64,000 nt of DNA from Escherichia coli. Lineage in GTDB: Bacteria > Pseudomonadota > Gammaproteobacteria > Enterobacterales > Enterobacteriaceae. Position numbers and translations under genes: made by a program. The stretch lies in assembly GCF_044647545.1 (NCBI RefSeq), contig NZ_CP172818.1; one strand, given 5' to 3'. Under the pieces are notes generated by a model, which saw only the letters and a list, made by a program, of their open reading frames with translations, ran no database searches and had not been told where the DNA came from. How positions within the stretch are numbered: the first letter of the stretch is position 1; every line of letters begins with the position of its first letter. Shown piece by piece: positions 1-55,653 of the stretch.

Positions 1-154
1 GGAGGATCATACTATGAATGCATTTTTGCGTTTTCTGGATGCAGATATCCAGAACAACCCGCAAAAAACTCGTCCATTCAACATTCAACAAGGAAAGAAA
101 CTTGTCGCTGGCATGGACGTCAACATTGATGATGAGATTGGCGACGACGAATAA
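1..154 (+). CDS. prlF: PrlF (SohA) antitoxin, 3' portion only (5' end lies outside the window)
   Basis: In-frame translation ends ...MNAFLRFLDADIQNNPQKTRPFNIQQGKKLVAGMDVNIDDEIGDDE, stop TAA at 152-154 overlapping the yhaV ATG by 1 nt; recognised as the PrlF C-terminus. Confidence 0.8.
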   Translation, partial: EDHTMNAFLRFLDADIQNNPQKTRPFNIQQGKKLVAGMDVNIDDEIGDDE

Positions 155-618
155 TGGATTTTCCACAAAGGGTTAATGGTTGGGCGCTATATGCTCATCC
201 CTGTTTTCAGGAAACCTACGACGCTTTAGTTGCCGAAGTCGAGACATTAAAGGGAAAAGATCCTGAAAATTATCAGAGAAAAGCCGCCACAAAGTTATTG
301 GCGGTAGTCCATAAAGTGATTGAGGAGCATATCACGGTCAATCCATCATCACCGGCATTCCGTCATGGCAAGTCGTTAGGCTCTGGGAAAAATAAAGACT
401 GGTCACGGGTAAAATTTGGTGCTGGTCGTTATCGTCTCTTCTTTCGTTACAGCGAAAAAGAGAAAGTCATCATTCTGGGATGGATGAACGATGAAAACAC
501 GCTGCGCACCTACGGTAAAAAAACAGATGCCTATACCGTATTCAGCAAAATGTTAAAAAGAGGACATCCTCCTGCCGACTGGGAAACCCTCACCCGAGAG
601 ACAGAAGAAACCCATTGA
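154..618 (+). CDS. yhaV: YhaV ribosome-dependent mRNA interferase toxin (PrlF-YhaV TA system)
   Basis: 154-aa ORF in track; sequence recognised as YhaV; immediately downstream of and overlapping prlF. Confidence 0.9.
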   Translation: MDFPQRVNGWALYAHPCFQETYDALVAEVETLKGKDPENYQRKAATKLLAVVHKVIEEHITVNPSSPAFRHGKSLGSGKNKDWSRVKFGAGRYRLFFRYSEKEKVIILGWMNDENTLRTYGKKTDAYTVFSKMLKRGHPPADWETLTRETEETH

Positions 619-672
619 TGGTATTCACAATGCCCGCCGAACGCATTCGTGTTGACCAGCGGGCACCCTTTC

Positions 673-1482
673 TCACTCCCCGACCAGAATCACTTCAACC
701 CCAGCCTTTCGCAGTCCTTCCAGACTATCCGCAGGAATGCCTTCATCAACAATGATCATGTCGATACGTTGAGTATCAATGATCTTATGTAAACTGGAAC
801 GGTTGAACTTACTGGAATCGGTGACCACGATGATCCGTTCCGCAACTTCGCACATCCGACGGTTTAAACGGGCTTCATCTTCATTATGCGTGCTGACGCC
901 GCGCTCCAGATCGATCGCATCTACACCAAGAAACAGCATATCGAAGTGGTAATTTTGCAGCGATTGCTCAGCCTGATCACCGTAAAAAGATTGCGACTGA
1001 CGGCGCAAATGCCCCCCGGTCATCAGCAGCTCAACGCCTTCCGCTTCCAGCAACGCATTAGCCACGTTCATACCGTTGGTCATCGCAATTACGTCGGTGT
1101 GCTTGCGCATCAGACGAGCAATCTCAAAAGTGGTGGTCCCGGAGTCGAGGATCACCCGATGACCAGGCTGAATCAACTCAACGGCAGCTTTCGCAACGCT
1201 GCGTTTCATTGCGGTGTTCAGCGCGCTTTTATCTTCCACTGATGGCTCGACTGACGGCGTCGTGCTATCGCAGATCAACGCGCCGCCATAGGCACGCACA
1301 GCGATCCCCTGCTTTTCCAGAAACGCCAGATCGTTGCGGATCGTCACAGTAGATACACCATACAACGCCGATAGATCATTAACTTGCACACTCCCTTGCT
1401 GGCGCAGGCGTTGAATGATCTGCTCTCGTCGCTCACTGGTGCCTGTCACTCGCTTCTCGCCTGAAGCGTCGGTATTACTCAT
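673..1482 (-). CDS. agaR: AgaR, DeoR-family transcriptional repressor of the aga cluster
   Basis: 269-aa ORF; N-terminal HTH plus DeoR sugar-binding domain; divergent from kbaZ. Confidence 0.92.
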
Positions 1483-1487
1483 AGTAA

Positions 1488-1700
1488 GTCCTTTCGTAAA
1501 ACTTTCGTTTCATTTCGTTTTGCCTATTAACGCCTTTCTATTAAGCAAATGCAAGCCCACCTTACCCATTGGCGCAAGCTACTCTCGTTTCAGTGGCTTT
1601 CATTATGTTTCTTTTGTGAATCAGATCAGAAAACTATTATCTTTCGTTTTATTTTTATCTCACCATGGCGCAGTATCAACTGAAACAAAACGAAAGATTA
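1488..1700. promoter_or_regulatory. agaR-kbaZ divergent promoter region with repeated TTTCRTTT/CTTTC motifs (putative AgaR operators)
   Basis: Multiple direct and inverted copies of ctttcgttt, tttcatttcgtttt, gaaacaaaacgaaag in a 250-bp AT-rich intergenic region; AgaR operators are known to be CTTTC-rich. Confidence 0.5.
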
Positions 1701-1730
1701 ATATCGCAGTAATCTGAACTGGAGAGGAAA

Positions 1731-3011
1731 GTGAAACATCTGACAGAAATGGTGAGACAGCACAAAGAGGGCAAAACAAATGGGATTTATGCCGTTTGTT
1801 CCGCACATCCGCTGGTGCTGGAAGCTGCAATCCGCTACGCCAGTGCAAACCAAACGCCGTTACTGATTGAAGCAACCTCCAATCAGGTGGACCAGTTCGG
1901 CGGTTATACCGGAATGACGCCCGCCGATTTTCGCGGCTTTGTTTGTCAGCTCGCCGACTCGTTGAATTTCCCACAGGATGCGTTGATTCTGGGTGGCGAC
2001 CATCTGGGGCCAAACCGCTGGCAAAACCTGCCTGCCGCTCAGGCAATGGCCAATGCCGATGATTTGATTAAAAGCTACGTGGCGGCAGGATTCAAAAAAA
2101 TTCACCTTGATTGCAGCATGTCCTGTCAGGACGATCCGATTCCCTTAACTGATGACATCGTGGCCGAACGCGCCGCTCGTCTGGCGAAAGTGGCGGAAGA
2201 AACCTGCCGTGAACATTTTGGCGCGGCCGATCTGGAGTATGTCATTGGTACCGAAGTACCGGTACCTGGCGGCGCGCATGAAACCTTAAGCGAGCTGGCG
2301 GTCACCACGCCGGATGCCGCCCGCGCCACACTGGAAGCCCATCGCCACGCCTTTGAAAAGCAGGGCCTGAATGCCATCTGGCCACGCATTATTGCCCTGG
2401 TGGTTCAACCCGGCGTCGAATTCGATCACACCAACGTTATTGATTATCAGCCAGCTAAAGCGACCGCATTAAGCCAGATGGTCGAAAACTACGAAACGCT
2501 GATTTTCGAAGCGCACTCTACCGATTACCAAACGCCGCAATCGTTGCGCCAGCTGGTGATTGACCACTTTGCCATTCTGAAAGTTGGCCCGGCGCTGACC
2601 TTCGCCCTGCGTGAAGCTCTGTTCTCTCTGGCGGCGATTGAAGAAGAACTGGTGCCAGCAAAAGCCTGTTCTGGTCTGCGTCAGGTGCTGGAAAACGTGA
2701 TGCTCGACCGCCCGGAATACTGGCAAAGCCACTACCACGGTGACGGCAACGCGCGTCGTCTGGCGCGTGGTTATAGCTACTCGGATCGCGTGCGCTATTA
2801 CTGGCCGGACAGCCAGATTGATGACGCTTTCGCTCATCTGGTTCGTAATCTGGCGGATTCACCAATTCCGCTACCGCTCATCAGCCAGTATTTGCCGCTG
2901 CAATACGTGAAAGTTCGCTCCGGCGAGCTGCAGCCAACACCACGGGAACTCATTATCAACCATATTCAGGACATCCTGGCGCAGTACCACACAGCCTGTG
3001 AAGGCCAATAA
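1731..3011 (+). CDS. kbaZ: KbaZ (AgaZ) tagatose-bisphosphate aldolase non-catalytic subunit
   Basis: 426-aa ORF beginning GTG at 1731; recognised sequence. Confidence 0.9.
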
Positions 3012-3033
3012 GCAAAACAAAGAGGAACACGCT

Positions 3034-3507
3034 ATGCCAAATATTGTTTTAAGCCGGATTGATGAGCGTTTGATTCACGGTCAGGTCGGCGTTCAGTGGG
3101 TCGGATTTGCGGGGGCAAATCTGGTGCTGGTAGCCAACGATGAGGTTGCCGAAGATCCGGTACAACAAAACCTGATGGAAATGGTACTGGCAGAAGGGAT
3201 CGCCGTACGTTTCTGGACGCTGCAAAAAGTCATCGACAACATTCATCGCGCCGCCGATCGACAGAAAATCCTGCTGGTTTGTAAAACACCTGCCGATTTC
3301 CTGACGCTGGTGAAAGGTGGCGTTCCGGTGAATCGCATTAACGTTGGCAATATGCACTACGCCAATGGCAAGCAACAAATCGCCAAAACGGTTTCTGTGG
3401 ATGCGGGTGATATCGCAGCATTTAACGACCTGAAAGCCGCTGGGGTGGAATGCTTCGTTCAGGGCGTCCCGACAGAGCCTGCTGTGGACCTCTTTAAATT
3501 ACTTTGA
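3034..3507 (+). CDS. agaV: AgaV, PTS N-acetylgalactosamine-specific EIIB component
   Basis: ATG at 3034 (MPNIVLSRIDERLIHGQVG...), 157 aa; the track ORF begins 12 codons upstream. Confidence 0.9.
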   Translation: MPNIVLSRIDERLIHGQVGVQWVGFAGANLVLVANDEVAEDPVQQNLMEMVLAEGIAVRFWTLQKVIDNIHRAADRQKILLVCKTPADFLTLVKGGVPVNRINVGNMHYANGKQQIAKTVSVDAGDIAAFNDLKAAGVECFVQGVPTEPAVDLFKLL

Positions 3508-3517
3508 GGGATTCATC

Positions 3518-3919
3518 ATGGAAATCAGTCTGTTGCAGGCATTCGCGTTGGGCATTATCGCCTTTATCGCTGGCCTGGATATGTTTAACGGCCTAACCCA
3601 TATGCACCGCCCGGTGGTCCTCGGCCCGTTGGTCGGGCTGGTACTTGGCGATCTGCATACCGGTATTTTAACCGGCGGTACGCTGGAACTGGTGTGGATG
3701 GGGCTGGCCCCGCTGGCGGGCGCACAGCCGCCTAACGTGATTATCGGTACTATCGTCGGCACGGCGTTTGCCATTACTACTGGCGTGAAACCCGATGTCG
3801 CGGTCGGTGTCGCCGTACCTTTCGCTGTCGCAGTACAGATGGGGATTACCTTCCTGTTCTCGGTGATGTCCGGCGTGATGTCCCGCGGCGACCTGGCAAC
3901 AAACCCGTGCCGCGTTTGA
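3518..3919 (+). pseudogene. agaW: agaW' fragment of PTS EIIC component (N-terminal part only)
   Basis: 133-aa ORF with IIC-like transmembrane N-terminus that terminates prematurely; matches the truncated agaW of K-12, where agaE/agaF are missing. Confidence 0.8.
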
Positions 3920-3938
3920 CGCTGGTGCCGACGGCCTG

Positions 3939-4442
3939 GTGCATTGCTATAACGGGATGACAGGTTTACATCACCGCGAACCGGGAATGGTTGGCGCGGG
4001 ATTAACGGACAAGCGCGCCTGGCTGGAACTGATAGCCGATGGTCATCATGTACATCCGGCGGCGATGTCGCTGTGTTGTTGCTGTGCGAAAGAGAGAATC
4101 GTGCTGATCACCGACGCGATGCAGGCAGCCGGGATGCCGGATGGTCGCTATACGTTATGTGGTGAAGAAGTGCAGATGCACGATGGCGTTGTCCGTACCG
4201 CGTCCGGTGGGCTGGCGGGCAGTACGCTGTCTGTCGATGCGGCAGTGCGCAACATGGTCGAGTTGACGGGCGTAACGCCTGCGGAAGCCATCCATATGGC
4301 ATCGCTGCATCCGGCGCGTATGCTGGGTGTTGATGGTGTTCTGGGATCGCTTAAACCGGGCAAACGCGCCAGCGTCGTTGCGCTGGATAGCGGGCTGCAT
4401 GTGCAACAAATCTGGATTCAGGGTCAATTAGCTTCGTTTTGA
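3939..4442 (+). pseudogene. agaA: agaA' fragment of N-acetylgalactosamine-6-phosphate deacetylase (C-terminal part only)
   Basis: 167-aa ORF corresponding to the C-terminal region of a NagA-like amidohydrolase; no N-terminal metal-binding region. Confidence 0.8.
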
Positions 4443-4518
4443 TGGTTTGCTCCTTTATTGGGCCTTCACTTCCCCCGTAAGGCCTTTCTTTTTCTTTCTT
4501 TTTGATCTGTGCAGCGGT

Positions 4519-4575
4519 GTCGGATGCGACGCTGACGCGTCTTCTTCGACCTACGGTACGCCGCATCCGGCAATC
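4519..4575. repeat. REP-like palindromic element
   Basis: gtcggatgcgacgctgacgcgtcttcttcgacctacggtacgccgcatccggca; reverse complement begins GCCGGATGCGGCGTA, typical of REP. Confidence 0.5.
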
Positions 4576-4599
4576 GGTGAACATAGCGACGTTATCACG

Positions 4600-4755
4600 C
4601 AATCCTTTAATCTTCCCTTGTCTTTTCTTTCAATGATCACAAATTTCGTTTTATTTCTTTTTTCTCCATTGAACTTTCAGTTTCTTTTCTATAGATTTTA
4701 ATCAACGAAAGACATCACCAAGTGAAATGAAACGAAAGGTAAGCGAAAGCGACAA
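4600..4755. promoter_or_regulatory. agaS promoter region with CTTTC/TTTCRTTT repeats (putative AgaR operators)
   Basis: Clustered motifs cttttctttc, tttcgttttatttc, tttcagtttcttttc, gaaatgaaacgaaag directly upstream of agaS. Confidence 0.5.
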
Positions 4756-4792
4756 CGCCCGACGCCAAGTTCATCAGACTAAGGATTGAGTT

Positions 4793-5947
4793 ATGCCAGA
4801 AAATTACACCCCTGCTGCCGCTGCAACCGGTACATGGACTGAAGAAGAGATCCGCCATCAGCCTCGCGCATGGATCCGTTCACTCACCAACATCGACGCG
4901 CTACGTTCCGCGCTCAATAACTTCCTTGAACCGTTACTGCGCAAAGAGAATCTGCGGGTAATCCTGACCGGAGCCGGAACCTCGGCATTTATCGGTGATA
5001 TCATCGCGCCGTGGCTCGCCAGCCATACCGGTAAAAACTTCAGCGCCGTACCGACCACCGATCTGGTCACTAATCCGATGGACTACCTGAATCCAGCTCA
5101 TCCGCTACTGTTGATCTCCTTCGGTCGATCCGGCAACAGCCCGGAAAGCGTCGCCGCCGTGGAACTGGCGAATCAGTTTGTACCGGAATGCTATCACCTG
5201 CCGATCACCTGCAACGAAGCGGGCGCTCTTTACCAAAACGCGATCAACAGCGACAACGCGTTTGCCCTGCTGATGCCCGCAGAAACGCACGATCGCGGCT
5301 TTGCGATGACCAGCAGCATTACCACCATGATGGCCAGCTGCCTCGCGGTTTTCGCACCTGAGACGATCAACAGCCAAACCTTCCGCGATGTGGCAGATCG
5401 TTGCCAGGAAATCCTGACCTCACTGGGCGATTTCAGCGAAGGTGTGTTTGGTTACGCACCGTGGAAACGGATCGTTTATCTCGGCAGCGGTGGCTTACAG
5501 GGCGCAGCACGCGAGTCGGCGCTGAAAGTACTGGAACTGACAGCGGGTAAACTGGCGGCCTTTTATGATTCCCCGACCGGATTCCGTCATGGCCCGAAAT
5601 CGCTGGTCGATAACGAAACGCTGGTGGTGGTGTTTGTCTCCAGCCACCCTTACACCCGTCAGTATGATCTTGATCTGCTGGCAGAACTCCGCCGCGATAA
5701 CCAGGCATTGCGCGTAATCGCCATCGCCGCGGAAAGCAACGACGTTATTACCGCCGGTCCACATATCATCCTGCCGCCGTCCCGTCACTTTATCGACGTT
5801 GAGCAGGCATTTTGCTTCCTGATGTACGCCCAGACGTTTGCACTGATGCAGTCGCTGCACATGGGTAATACGCCGGATACCCCATCAGCCAGTGGCACCG
5901 TTAACCGCGTGGTGCAAGGCGTAATCATTCATCCGTGGCAGGCATAA
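4793..5947 (+). CDS. agaS: AgaS, SIS-domain sugar isomerase/deaminase (putative galactosamine-6-phosphate deaminase)
   Basis: 384-aa ORF; recognised sequence. Confidence 0.92.
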   Translation: MPENYTPAAAATGTWTEEEIRHQPRAWIRSLTNIDALRSALNNFLEPLLRKENLRVILTGAGTSAFIGDIIAPWLASHTGKNFSAVPTTDLVTNPMDYLNPAHPLLLISFGRSGNSPESVAAVELANQFVPECYHLPITCNEAGALYQNAINSDNAFALLMPAETHDRGFAMTSSITTMMASCLAVFAPETINSQTFRDVADRCQEILTSLGDFSEGVFGYAPWKRIVYLGSGGLQGAARESALKVLELTAGKLAAFYDSPTGFRHGPKSLVDNETLVVVFVSSHPYTRQYDLDLLAELRRDNQALRVIAIAAESNDVITAGPHIILPPSRHFIDVEQAFCFLMYAQTFALMQSLHMGNTPDTPSASGTVNRVVQGVIIHPWQA

Positions 5948-55101: not shown

Positions 55102-55653
55102 TTATTTCGTTGTACCCACAGGTTCAGTGGTTTCATTATTACCTGGCGCAGCAGCTGGCGCATCGCCACTATTCTTATTGTCATCGCCTTTACTACCGTA
55201 AAGGAACTGACCAATGAGATCTTCCAGCACCATCGCAGACTTGGTGTCCTGAATTGTATCGCCATCCTTCAGGATAGCAGTCCCCAGTTCCGGGTCTTCA
55301 AAACCGACGTTTAATGCCAGATATTGTTCCCCCAGCAGGCCGGAAGTACGAATGCTCAGCGAACTGGTATCAGGAATGTGGTTATAACGTTGTTCAATTT
55401 CCAGCGTTACGCGCGGCAGATAGGTTTTCGGGTCCAGCGTAATATCCGCCACCCGGCCCACAACAACGCCACCAATGCTGACCGGAGAGCGCGCTTTCAG
55501 GCCGCCAATGTTATCGAACGTCGCATAAAGCGTATAGGTCGGTTCAGTACGTATGGACGTCACGTTCGCCGCCTTCAGGCAAACAAACAGCGCCGCCAGT
55601 AGTGCTGCTAATAAAAAGATACCCACCCAAATTTCATTTTTTTTCGTTTGCAT
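55102..55653 (-). CDS. mlaD: MlaD, MCE-domain substrate-binding protein
   Basis: ATG at 55653 (MQTKKNEIWVGIFLL), 183 aa. Confidence 0.93.
   Translation of the reverse strand: MQTKKNEIWVGIFLLAALLAALFVCLKAANVTSIRTEPTYTLYATFDNIGGLKARSPVSIGGVVVGRVADITLDPKTYLPRVTLEIEQRYNHIPDTSSLSIRTSGLLGEQYLALNVGFEDPELGTAILKDGDTIQDTKSAMVLEDLIGQFLYGSKGDDNKNSGDAPAAAPGNNETTEPVGTTK

Follow-up and report, generated by a model that had tools for sequence, protein, structure and literature searches.

AgaR, the repressor of the N-acetylgalactosamine/galactosamine (aga) regulon of Escherichia coli, is an autoregulator that binds upstream of agaR, kbaZ (also called agaZ) and agaS (PMC4694137; PMC3668189), and the sequences that it binds at these three promoters have been described as tandem repeats (PMC3668189; PMC4694137; PMC5018945). 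The passages on AgaR in these papers credit the direct evidence of binding and protection to Ray & Larson 2004 (PMC3668189; PMC4694137; PMC5018945). Deletion of agaR renders agaA and agaS constitutive, and indirect evidence points to GalNAc-6-P as the likely inducer (PMC3668189); the physiological ligand of AgaR is called unclear in another report (PMC4694137). More recently, an AgaR site given as CTTTCGTTTCATTT(T)CGTTT was listed in Table S3 of a study on synthetic promoters, in which placement of an AgaR site at +1 or -61 led to repression that depended on the dose of AgaR (PMC8667592).

Several known repressors invite comparison with AgaR. GlpR, the regulator of the glp regulon, belongs to the same repressor family, which combines an HTH_DeoR with a DeoRC domain. 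It acts through multiple tandem sites that are arranged with a periodicity of about 10 bp around promoters and it responds to a sugar/polyol phosphate inducer, features that are likewise found in AgaR. The two differ in recognition sequence: the half-sites of GlpR combine into palindrome-like units of 20 bp, and an AgaR site consists of pentamers in direct repeat. The only solved relative that could be identified by sequence is the sensor domain of DeoR (7l6l; E = 1.8e-12), the repressor of the deo operon, which has several separated operators, as does AgaR. Repression by DeoR from multiple operators involves DNA looping. The DeoR operators are 16-bp palindromes that lie hundreds of bp apart, whereas for AgaR looping is at most suggested by fixed spacings. 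Finally, the streptococcal regulators AgaR, AgaR1 and AgaR2 share with the E. coli protein their name and their pathway, in that they repress genes for GalNAc utilization, but they are not homologous to it: they belong to the unrelated GntR family, carry a UTRA domain and recognize even palindromes of 14-24 bp (PMC4694137; PMC5018945).

The DNA analysed here is a 64-kb stretch from E. coli, hereafter the window, in which positions 1483-1730 are the exact 248-bp spacer between the divergent genes agaR and kbaZ of an aga cluster of the E. coli type. The gene on the left, agaR (673-1482, minus strand), was identified by the NCBIfam AgaR equivalog model and by PRK09802, in agreement with the RefSeq annotation; matches to the equivalog ranged from 4e-140 to 4e-174, with 465 bits against a cut-off of 260, and Pfam places HTH_DeoR at residues 18-74 and DeoRC at residues 89-247 of the product. 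The operator array described below is thus directly adjoined by the gene of its cognate repressor, with both domains of the family. On the right, kbaZ (1731-3011, plus strand), the first gene of the aga operon, matches the NCBIfam KbaZ equivalog at 1e-270 and is preceded by the Shine-Dalgarno sequence GGAGAGG (1721-1727, plus strand), which is conserved across orthologous spacers. The same arrangement of agaR and kbaZ is annotated in RefSeq genomes of E. coli, and among 5426 complete genomes of the species 5318 contain the region. Relative to K-12 MG1655 the window is collinear (window position + 3,277,183), with a divergence of about 3%. Within the spacer there are five differences from MG1655 (1564, 1572, 1596, 1635 and 1668), and since all of them fall outside the motif cores, data obtained in K-12 can be transferred directly to this sequence; in E. 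coli FDAARGOS_497 the spacer is 100% identical to that of the window. When compared with the K-12 AgaR operators (Ray & Larson 2004, Mol Microbiol 51:813; Leyn et al. 2012, J Biol Chem 287:28047), the region has the same genes, the same 248-bp spacer and the same motif copies, and is the same object, with no difference of substance in spite of the divergence of the lineage. We conclude with high confidence that the motif array in this spacer represents the AgaR operators of the divergent agaR and kbaZ promoters. This operator set is already known; it is real but ordinary, a divergent control region of the textbook type, where a DeoR-family repressor that responds to a sugar phosphate regulates its own gene together with its catabolic operon, and beyond correct annotation its importance is small.

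Exact copies of TTTCRTTT occur in the spacer at 1503, 1508, 1513 and 1642 on the plus strand and at 1688 on the minus strand, which amounts to 5 of the 14 copies within the 64 kb; three of these five overlap, all inside a single operator. For this octamer the spacer is the densest 248-bp stretch anywhere in the window. As a null model we used 5000 dinucleotide-preserving shuffles of the 248 bp, in which the mean count was 0.12 and the maximum 3, so that the observed number of five was reached in none of them. The original prediction of a dense TTTCRTTT array in the agaR-kbaZ control region, whose coordinates coincide with the exact spacer, therefore stands, and the outcome that was to count against it, a motif frequency no higher than in shuffled sequence, did not occur. 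Similar enrichment was obtained with shorter and longer versions of the motif: CTTTCRTTT was observed three times (shuffle mean 0.03), and CTTTC six times, at 1491, 1502, 1534, 1597 and 1641 (plus) and 1692 (minus), against a shuffle mean of 1.05, a count attained in 2 of the 5000 shuffles. The prediction had further spoken of at least six direct or inverted copies. Both orientations are indeed present, four exact TTTCRTTT on the plus strand and one on the minus strand, and a repeat search recovered the same direct and inverted families independently. The number of six is correct when degenerate copies are counted, but not at up to one mismatch to CTTTCGTTT, for which five copies were found in the spacer, those at 1502 and 1641 (plus) and 1688 (minus) being exact.

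A longer version of the motif, the 14-mer TTTCRTTTYRTTTY, is present without mismatch at 1503, 1508 and 1642 (plus) and 1682 (minus), and again upstream of agaS at 4644 (plus) and 4724 (minus). Allowing up to one mismatch, eight matches were found in the 64 kb as compared with 0.74 expected, seven of which lie in these two aga control regions.

Inspection of the copies revealed that they are arranged as four composite operators made of pentamers in 5-bp phase, CTTTC-RTTWY-RTTTY. Operator A (1499-1522, plus strand; AAA-CTTTC-GTTTC-ATTTC-GTTTT-G) comprises four phased pentamers and obtained the top score, 31.5, with the position weight matrix (PWM) described below; an identical core is found in 56 of 77 orthologous spacers, and one with no more than a single mismatch in 74 of them. 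It is the strongest AgaR site and lies over the putative start site of agaR. Positions 1502-1521 within it correspond to the site of Table S3, from which they differ in lacking a single T of the published text (PMC8667592). An auxiliary CTTTC half-site, B (1534-1538, plus strand), falls within the spacer of the putative agaR promoter; its distance to the first CTTTC of operator A is 32 bp, and it is conserved as CCTTTC at 95% or more. Operator C (1594-1617, plus strand; CTTTC-ATTAT-GTTTC-TTTTG; PWM score 27.4) abuts a CRP-like site and is also conserved at 95% or more. Operator D (1638-1659, plus strand; TAT-CTTTC-GTTTT-ATTTT-TATC; PWM score 30.1) contains the exact 14-mer and is conserved, and operator E (1676-1699, minus strand; AAT-CTTTC-GTTTT-GTTTC-AGTT; PWM score 29.7), with an exact 14-mer at 1682-1695, is inverted relative to D. 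The two last-mentioned operators account for an inverted pair of 16 nt (1639-1654 and 1683-1698) with 94% complementarity.

Rather than a 9-mer, AgaR thus recognizes a composite unit of 15-19 bp in which pentamers are set in phase; in the AgaR consensus, one helical turn separates the two TTTC elements that are strongest. The sites have been termed 'palindromes' (PMC4694137), as opposed to the direct pentamer repeats that are seen in the sequence of the window; in our view direct repeats of phased pentamers, CTTTC-RTTWY-RTTTY, describe the operator better than a 9-mer or a palindrome would. Two of the motif-like copies are probably not operators. The copy CCTTTCGTA at 1490-1498 (plus strand), with its CTTTC at 1491, most likely represents, in reverse complement, the Shine-Dalgarno sequence of agaR, AAGGA, located 8 nt before the ATG; across genera only TCCTT is kept in this copy and its CGTA part varies. 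The copy at 1582-1590 sits in a non-conserved part of the spacer and is found in Escherichia only.

One genome per species was scanned, and agaR was found at 80 loci, which extend from Escherichia, Citrobacter, Klebsiella, Enterobacter and Salmonella as far as Yersinia, Serratia, Ewingella and Mixta; at every one of them kbaZ is the divergent neighbor of agaR. A phylogenetic footprint was then derived from 76 complete orthologous spacers and that of the window, 77 sequences from more than 20 genera. All four operators keep their sequence and spacing in the 76 orthologous spacers, whose hosts range from Escherichia as far as Yersinia and Serratia, and the CRP-like site (1615-1630) and promoter-like hexamers are kept as well. 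Conservation is sharply blocky: among the 77 spacers it amounts to 80-95% or more in A, B, C with the CRP-like site, D, GCAGTAT and E. From left to right the blocks read CTTTCGTTTCATTTCGTTT (operator A), CTATTAAC-GCCTTTC, AATGCAAGC, operator C together with TGTGAAaCAGATC, TATCTTTCGTTTTATTTTTA (operator D), GCAGTAT, GAAACAAAACGAAAGA (operator E) and the kbaZ Shine-Dalgarno sequence; the segments 1557-1596 and 1698-1720 are not conserved. The geometry is fixed as well. Between the points used to anchor A and B in the search (1502 and 1524) there are 22 bp in 75 of the 77 spacers, D follows C at 42 bp in all 77 and E follows D at 43 bp in 70, A and C are separated by 95-98 bp in 72, and the whole spacer measures 248-251 bp in 69. 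In the orthologous spacers the 8-mer is 127 times, and the 14-mer about 1000 times, denser than in the other 478 kb of these loci.

When sites A, C, D and E of all species were pooled, the consensus aatCTTTC-RTTWY-RTTTY-ttT was obtained, in which conservation is 97% or more for the CTTTC core and likewise for TTT in the third pentamer. A PWM built solely from non-Escherichia agaR-kbaZ spacers assigned scores of 27-31.5 to the four operators of the window, as compared with a best score of 18.7 in shuffled windows. The architecture is fixed across Enterobacterales and supplies a clean matrix for AgaR site searches in other genomes; the conservation of operator spacing across genera may go slightly beyond published work. 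The prediction that multiple AgaR operators serve agaR and kbaZ is supported by the coincidence of the motif with conserved islands of the footprint and by its recurrence at agaS, and it agrees with the published binding of AgaR and repression through operator A (PMC4694137, PMC3668189, PMC8667592).

Within the 64-kb window, all PWM matches above the maximum of the shuffles are confined to 1499-1699 and 4640-4741. The latter interval holds a second operator cluster upstream of agaS (4793), at 4640-4663 (plus strand; PWM score 23.5) and 4718-4741 (minus strand; 29.3). A weaker site upstream of agaS (4481-4504) scored 18.5, slightly below the shuffle maximum of 18.7. The PWM matches themselves span 4640-4661, 4720-4741 and 4481-4502, respectively. 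The 2004 study of Ray and Larson reportedly gave a 24-bp AgaR consensus, WRMMTTTCRTTTYRTTTYNYTTKK, derived from the same K-12 sites. This sequence matches 1499-1522 and 4718-4741 without mismatch; the mismatches number 0, 2 and 3 at 1499, 1594 and 1676 (minus), respectively, and 1, 0 and 3 upstream of agaS (chance expectation 0.05), and at up to three mismatches six of the seven matches are within the two aga control regions. A search with the AgaR consensus, which had been proposed as a check, thus did find the sites, but given the origin of this consensus in these very K-12 sites the match is a consistency check and not independent evidence. One further sequence resembling the consensus with three mismatches, CAAATTTCATTTTTTTTCGTTTGC at 55628-55651, is located on the antisense strand of the first mlaD codons, near the end of mlaE; as it lies inside the mlaD coding sequence and its PWM score is below the best of the shuffled windows, we regard it as a chance match.

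Candidate promoter elements were assigned within the conserved blocks. For agaR, a putative -10 element (GTTAAT / TAATAG; 1523-1530, minus strand) coincides with CTATTAAC, which is nearly invariant in the 77 spacers, and a TG is found upstream of TAATAG in many genera; a putative -35 element (TTGCAT; 1548-1553, minus strand) falls in the conserved AATGCAAGC. Transcription of agaR would then start near 1516-1519, inside operator A. For kbaZ, the putative -10 element CAGTAT (1672-1677, plus strand) is part of the conserved GCAGTAT, with A2, A5 and T6 nearly invariant, which would set the start near 1684 and the center of the CRP-like site at about -61.5. The alternative -10 element TATTTT (1650-1655), with CRP at -41.5, is disfavored: its second position is A, G or C among genera and behaves like the R position of an AgaR pentamer. 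The CRP-like site itself (1615-1630; TGTGA-ATCAGA-TCAGA, TGTGAATCAGATCAGA) has one mismatch to TGTGA-N6-TCACA and is conserved across genera as TGTGAAACAGATCGGA; by count alone it is not significant, with 2 matches in the window against 1.9 expected. The agaZ promoter is said by Ray and Larson (2004) to be CRP-dependent, and in their abstract the AgaR sites reportedly lie 'upstream of the start sites', a wording that fits our kbaZ model and sits uneasily with operator A at +1 of agaR. A consensus promoter scan gave no sigma-70 match, on the plus strand or in the direction of agaR, at the putative promoter positions; it speaks neither for nor against the assignments, which rest on conservation. 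The exact -10, -35 and start-site positions, the class of the CRP site and any cooperative or looped binding are putative.

Other signals in the spacer were set aside. Promoter-like matches on the minus strand at 1679-1651 and 1663-1636 are probably due to chance, as TTGATA is not retained outside Escherichia and about one such match is found in shuffles. A terminator-like hairpin at 1576-1599 was rejected, since it is situated in a block that is not conserved and between two divergent promoters, where no gene lies upstream whose transcription it could end. A scan of window positions 1-5000 returned no Rfam match to a structured RNA. In genomic SELEX data, a peak of RNA polymerase holoenzyme is reported in the agaR/kbaZ spacer for two minor sigma factors, one in the section on the heat-shock sigma factor and the other in that on the extra-cytoplasmic sigma factor (PMC5493296).

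These features suggest the following model. AgaR, a repressor of the DeoR/GlpR family with an N-terminal HTH and a C-terminal sugar-phosphate sensor, reads composite sites of 5-bp-phased pentamers, of which four, along with one half-site, would bracket both promoters. A and B would lie over the start site and the spacer of the putative agaR promoter and mediate autoregulation; C would be placed just upstream of the CRP-like site, D over the -35 region of the putative kbaZ promoter and E over the kbaZ start site. Occupied operators would exclude or trap RNA polymerase, and given the predicted overlap of promoters and operators AgaR would occlude both promoters until released by a GalNAc-derived sugar phosphate. 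Such release would occur upon growth on GalNAc or GalN, with GalNAc-6-phosphate as the probable inducer, after which cAMP-CRP would help to activate kbaZ. A more elaborate arrangement can be envisaged, in which the whole 248-bp spacer works as one repression complex of fixed geometry, with AgaR oligomers on the agaR-proximal A and B touching those on the kbaZ-proximal C, D and E by looping or wrapping so that the promoters switch together. We consider this unlikely. A hint of looping comes from the fact that the length of the spacer and the distance from A to C are kept although about 40 bp between them (1557-1596) share no sequence; the hint is weak because other non-conserved segments also keep their length, and a low general rate of indels or constraints on the 5' UTRs could equally explain the conserved length of the spacer.

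Could the repeats have an origin other than AgaR binding? An array of T-rich repeats might be a by-product of AT-rich promoter DNA, reflecting curvature, UP-element-like sequences or binding of the H-NS/Fis type rather than specific operators, and the G+C content of only 37% and the phased T tracts that the pentamers create with a period of about 10 bp would be in keeping with this notion. We nevertheless hold it to be very improbable, since the shuffles, which preserve dinucleotides, never attained the observed count, and the invariance of the T's is matched by that of the non-T positions (both C's and the R at the junctions). Moreover, the 14-mer recurs at the agaS promoter but is practically absent elsewhere, both in the 64 kb and in the 478 kb of DNA flanking the orthologous spacers, and an isolated 20-bp site suffices to confer AgaR-dependent repression (PMC8667592). 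The last result also bears on the identity of the binding protein. E. coli has numerous paralogues of the DeoR family, and kbaZ and kbaY have the close paralogues gatZ and gatY (the GatZ model matches KbaZ at 3.8e-169), such that the main binder might be another regulator, for example the paralogous GatR of the galactitol/tagatose pathway, with a minor role for AgaR. This would be hard to reconcile with the motif travelling with agaR, immediately upstream of it, in all 76 orthologous loci, with the constitutive expression of agaA and agaS upon agaR deletion (PMC3668189) and with the repression through the site that is obtained by AgaR titration (PMC8667592); no evidence for another binder was found, and we give this possibility almost no credence.

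Nor do the repeats seem to reflect codon or peptide repeats of a small protein. Two mechanically called open reading frames overlap the region, one of 100 aa (1415-1717, plus strand) and one of 128 aa (1660-2046, minus strand) that begins with TTG and runs antisense to kbaZ. Both are open in the window, and the former remains open in each of the three further Escherichia loci as well; neither has a family match or a RefSeq annotation. The frame at 1415-1717 is intact in 4 of 81 loci, all of them Escherichia, being broken outside this genus, and the spacer alignment shows indels and the fully non-conserved 40-bp block inside it. The frame at 1660-2046 is intact in 15 of 81 loci, with stops interrupting most orthologues. 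Conservation follows the operator and promoter blocks and not a reading frame. That part of the region is coding therefore appears extremely unlikely; the two frames, which the original prediction had already judged to be probably non-coding, are not genes, and both calls can safely be discarded.

Some further observations were made on the aga cluster and its surroundings. Immediately downstream of agaR lies the prlF-yhaV type II toxin-antitoxin pair (1-618), with the 3' end of prlF at 1-154 and yhaV at 154-618, as assigned by collinearity with MG1655 and FDAARGOS_497; the NCBIfam scan returned no match for YhaV. On the other side, the cluster carries the 2.3-kb deletion of the K-12 type (3518-4442), though the window is about 3% diverged from K-12. 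It leaves agaW truncated to 133 aa (3518-3919) and agaA reduced to its last 167 codons (3939-4442), remnants whose coordinates coincide with those of the MG1655 pseudogenes b3134 and b3135, and the strain is presumably Aga- Gam- despite its intact AgaR operators. Among 5426 complete E. coli genomes, only 370 carry the junction of this deletion as one contiguous sequence; the best such match reaches 98.0%, and the separate halves match other strains at 99% or more. Either the same deletion arose on, or was transferred to, a non-K-12 background, or the source (e.g. a Shigella-type genome) is outside the compared collection. The spacer between the agaA remnant and agaS is unusually divergent, with 43 mismatches per 250 bp to MG1655 at 4500-4750 in an ungapped comparison versus about 5 per 250 bp elsewhere, probably because of a palindromic element that is REP-like and variable (gcggatgcgacgc...gccgcatccggc, ~4515-4575) or of an indel; the AgaR sites at 4640-4741 are intact despite these divergent surroundings. 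In FDAARGOS_497 the aga cluster is complete, with agaWEF and agaA present, but agaB is split by IS1 (L001 16993-18246), which is another independent route to partial inactivation of the pathway.
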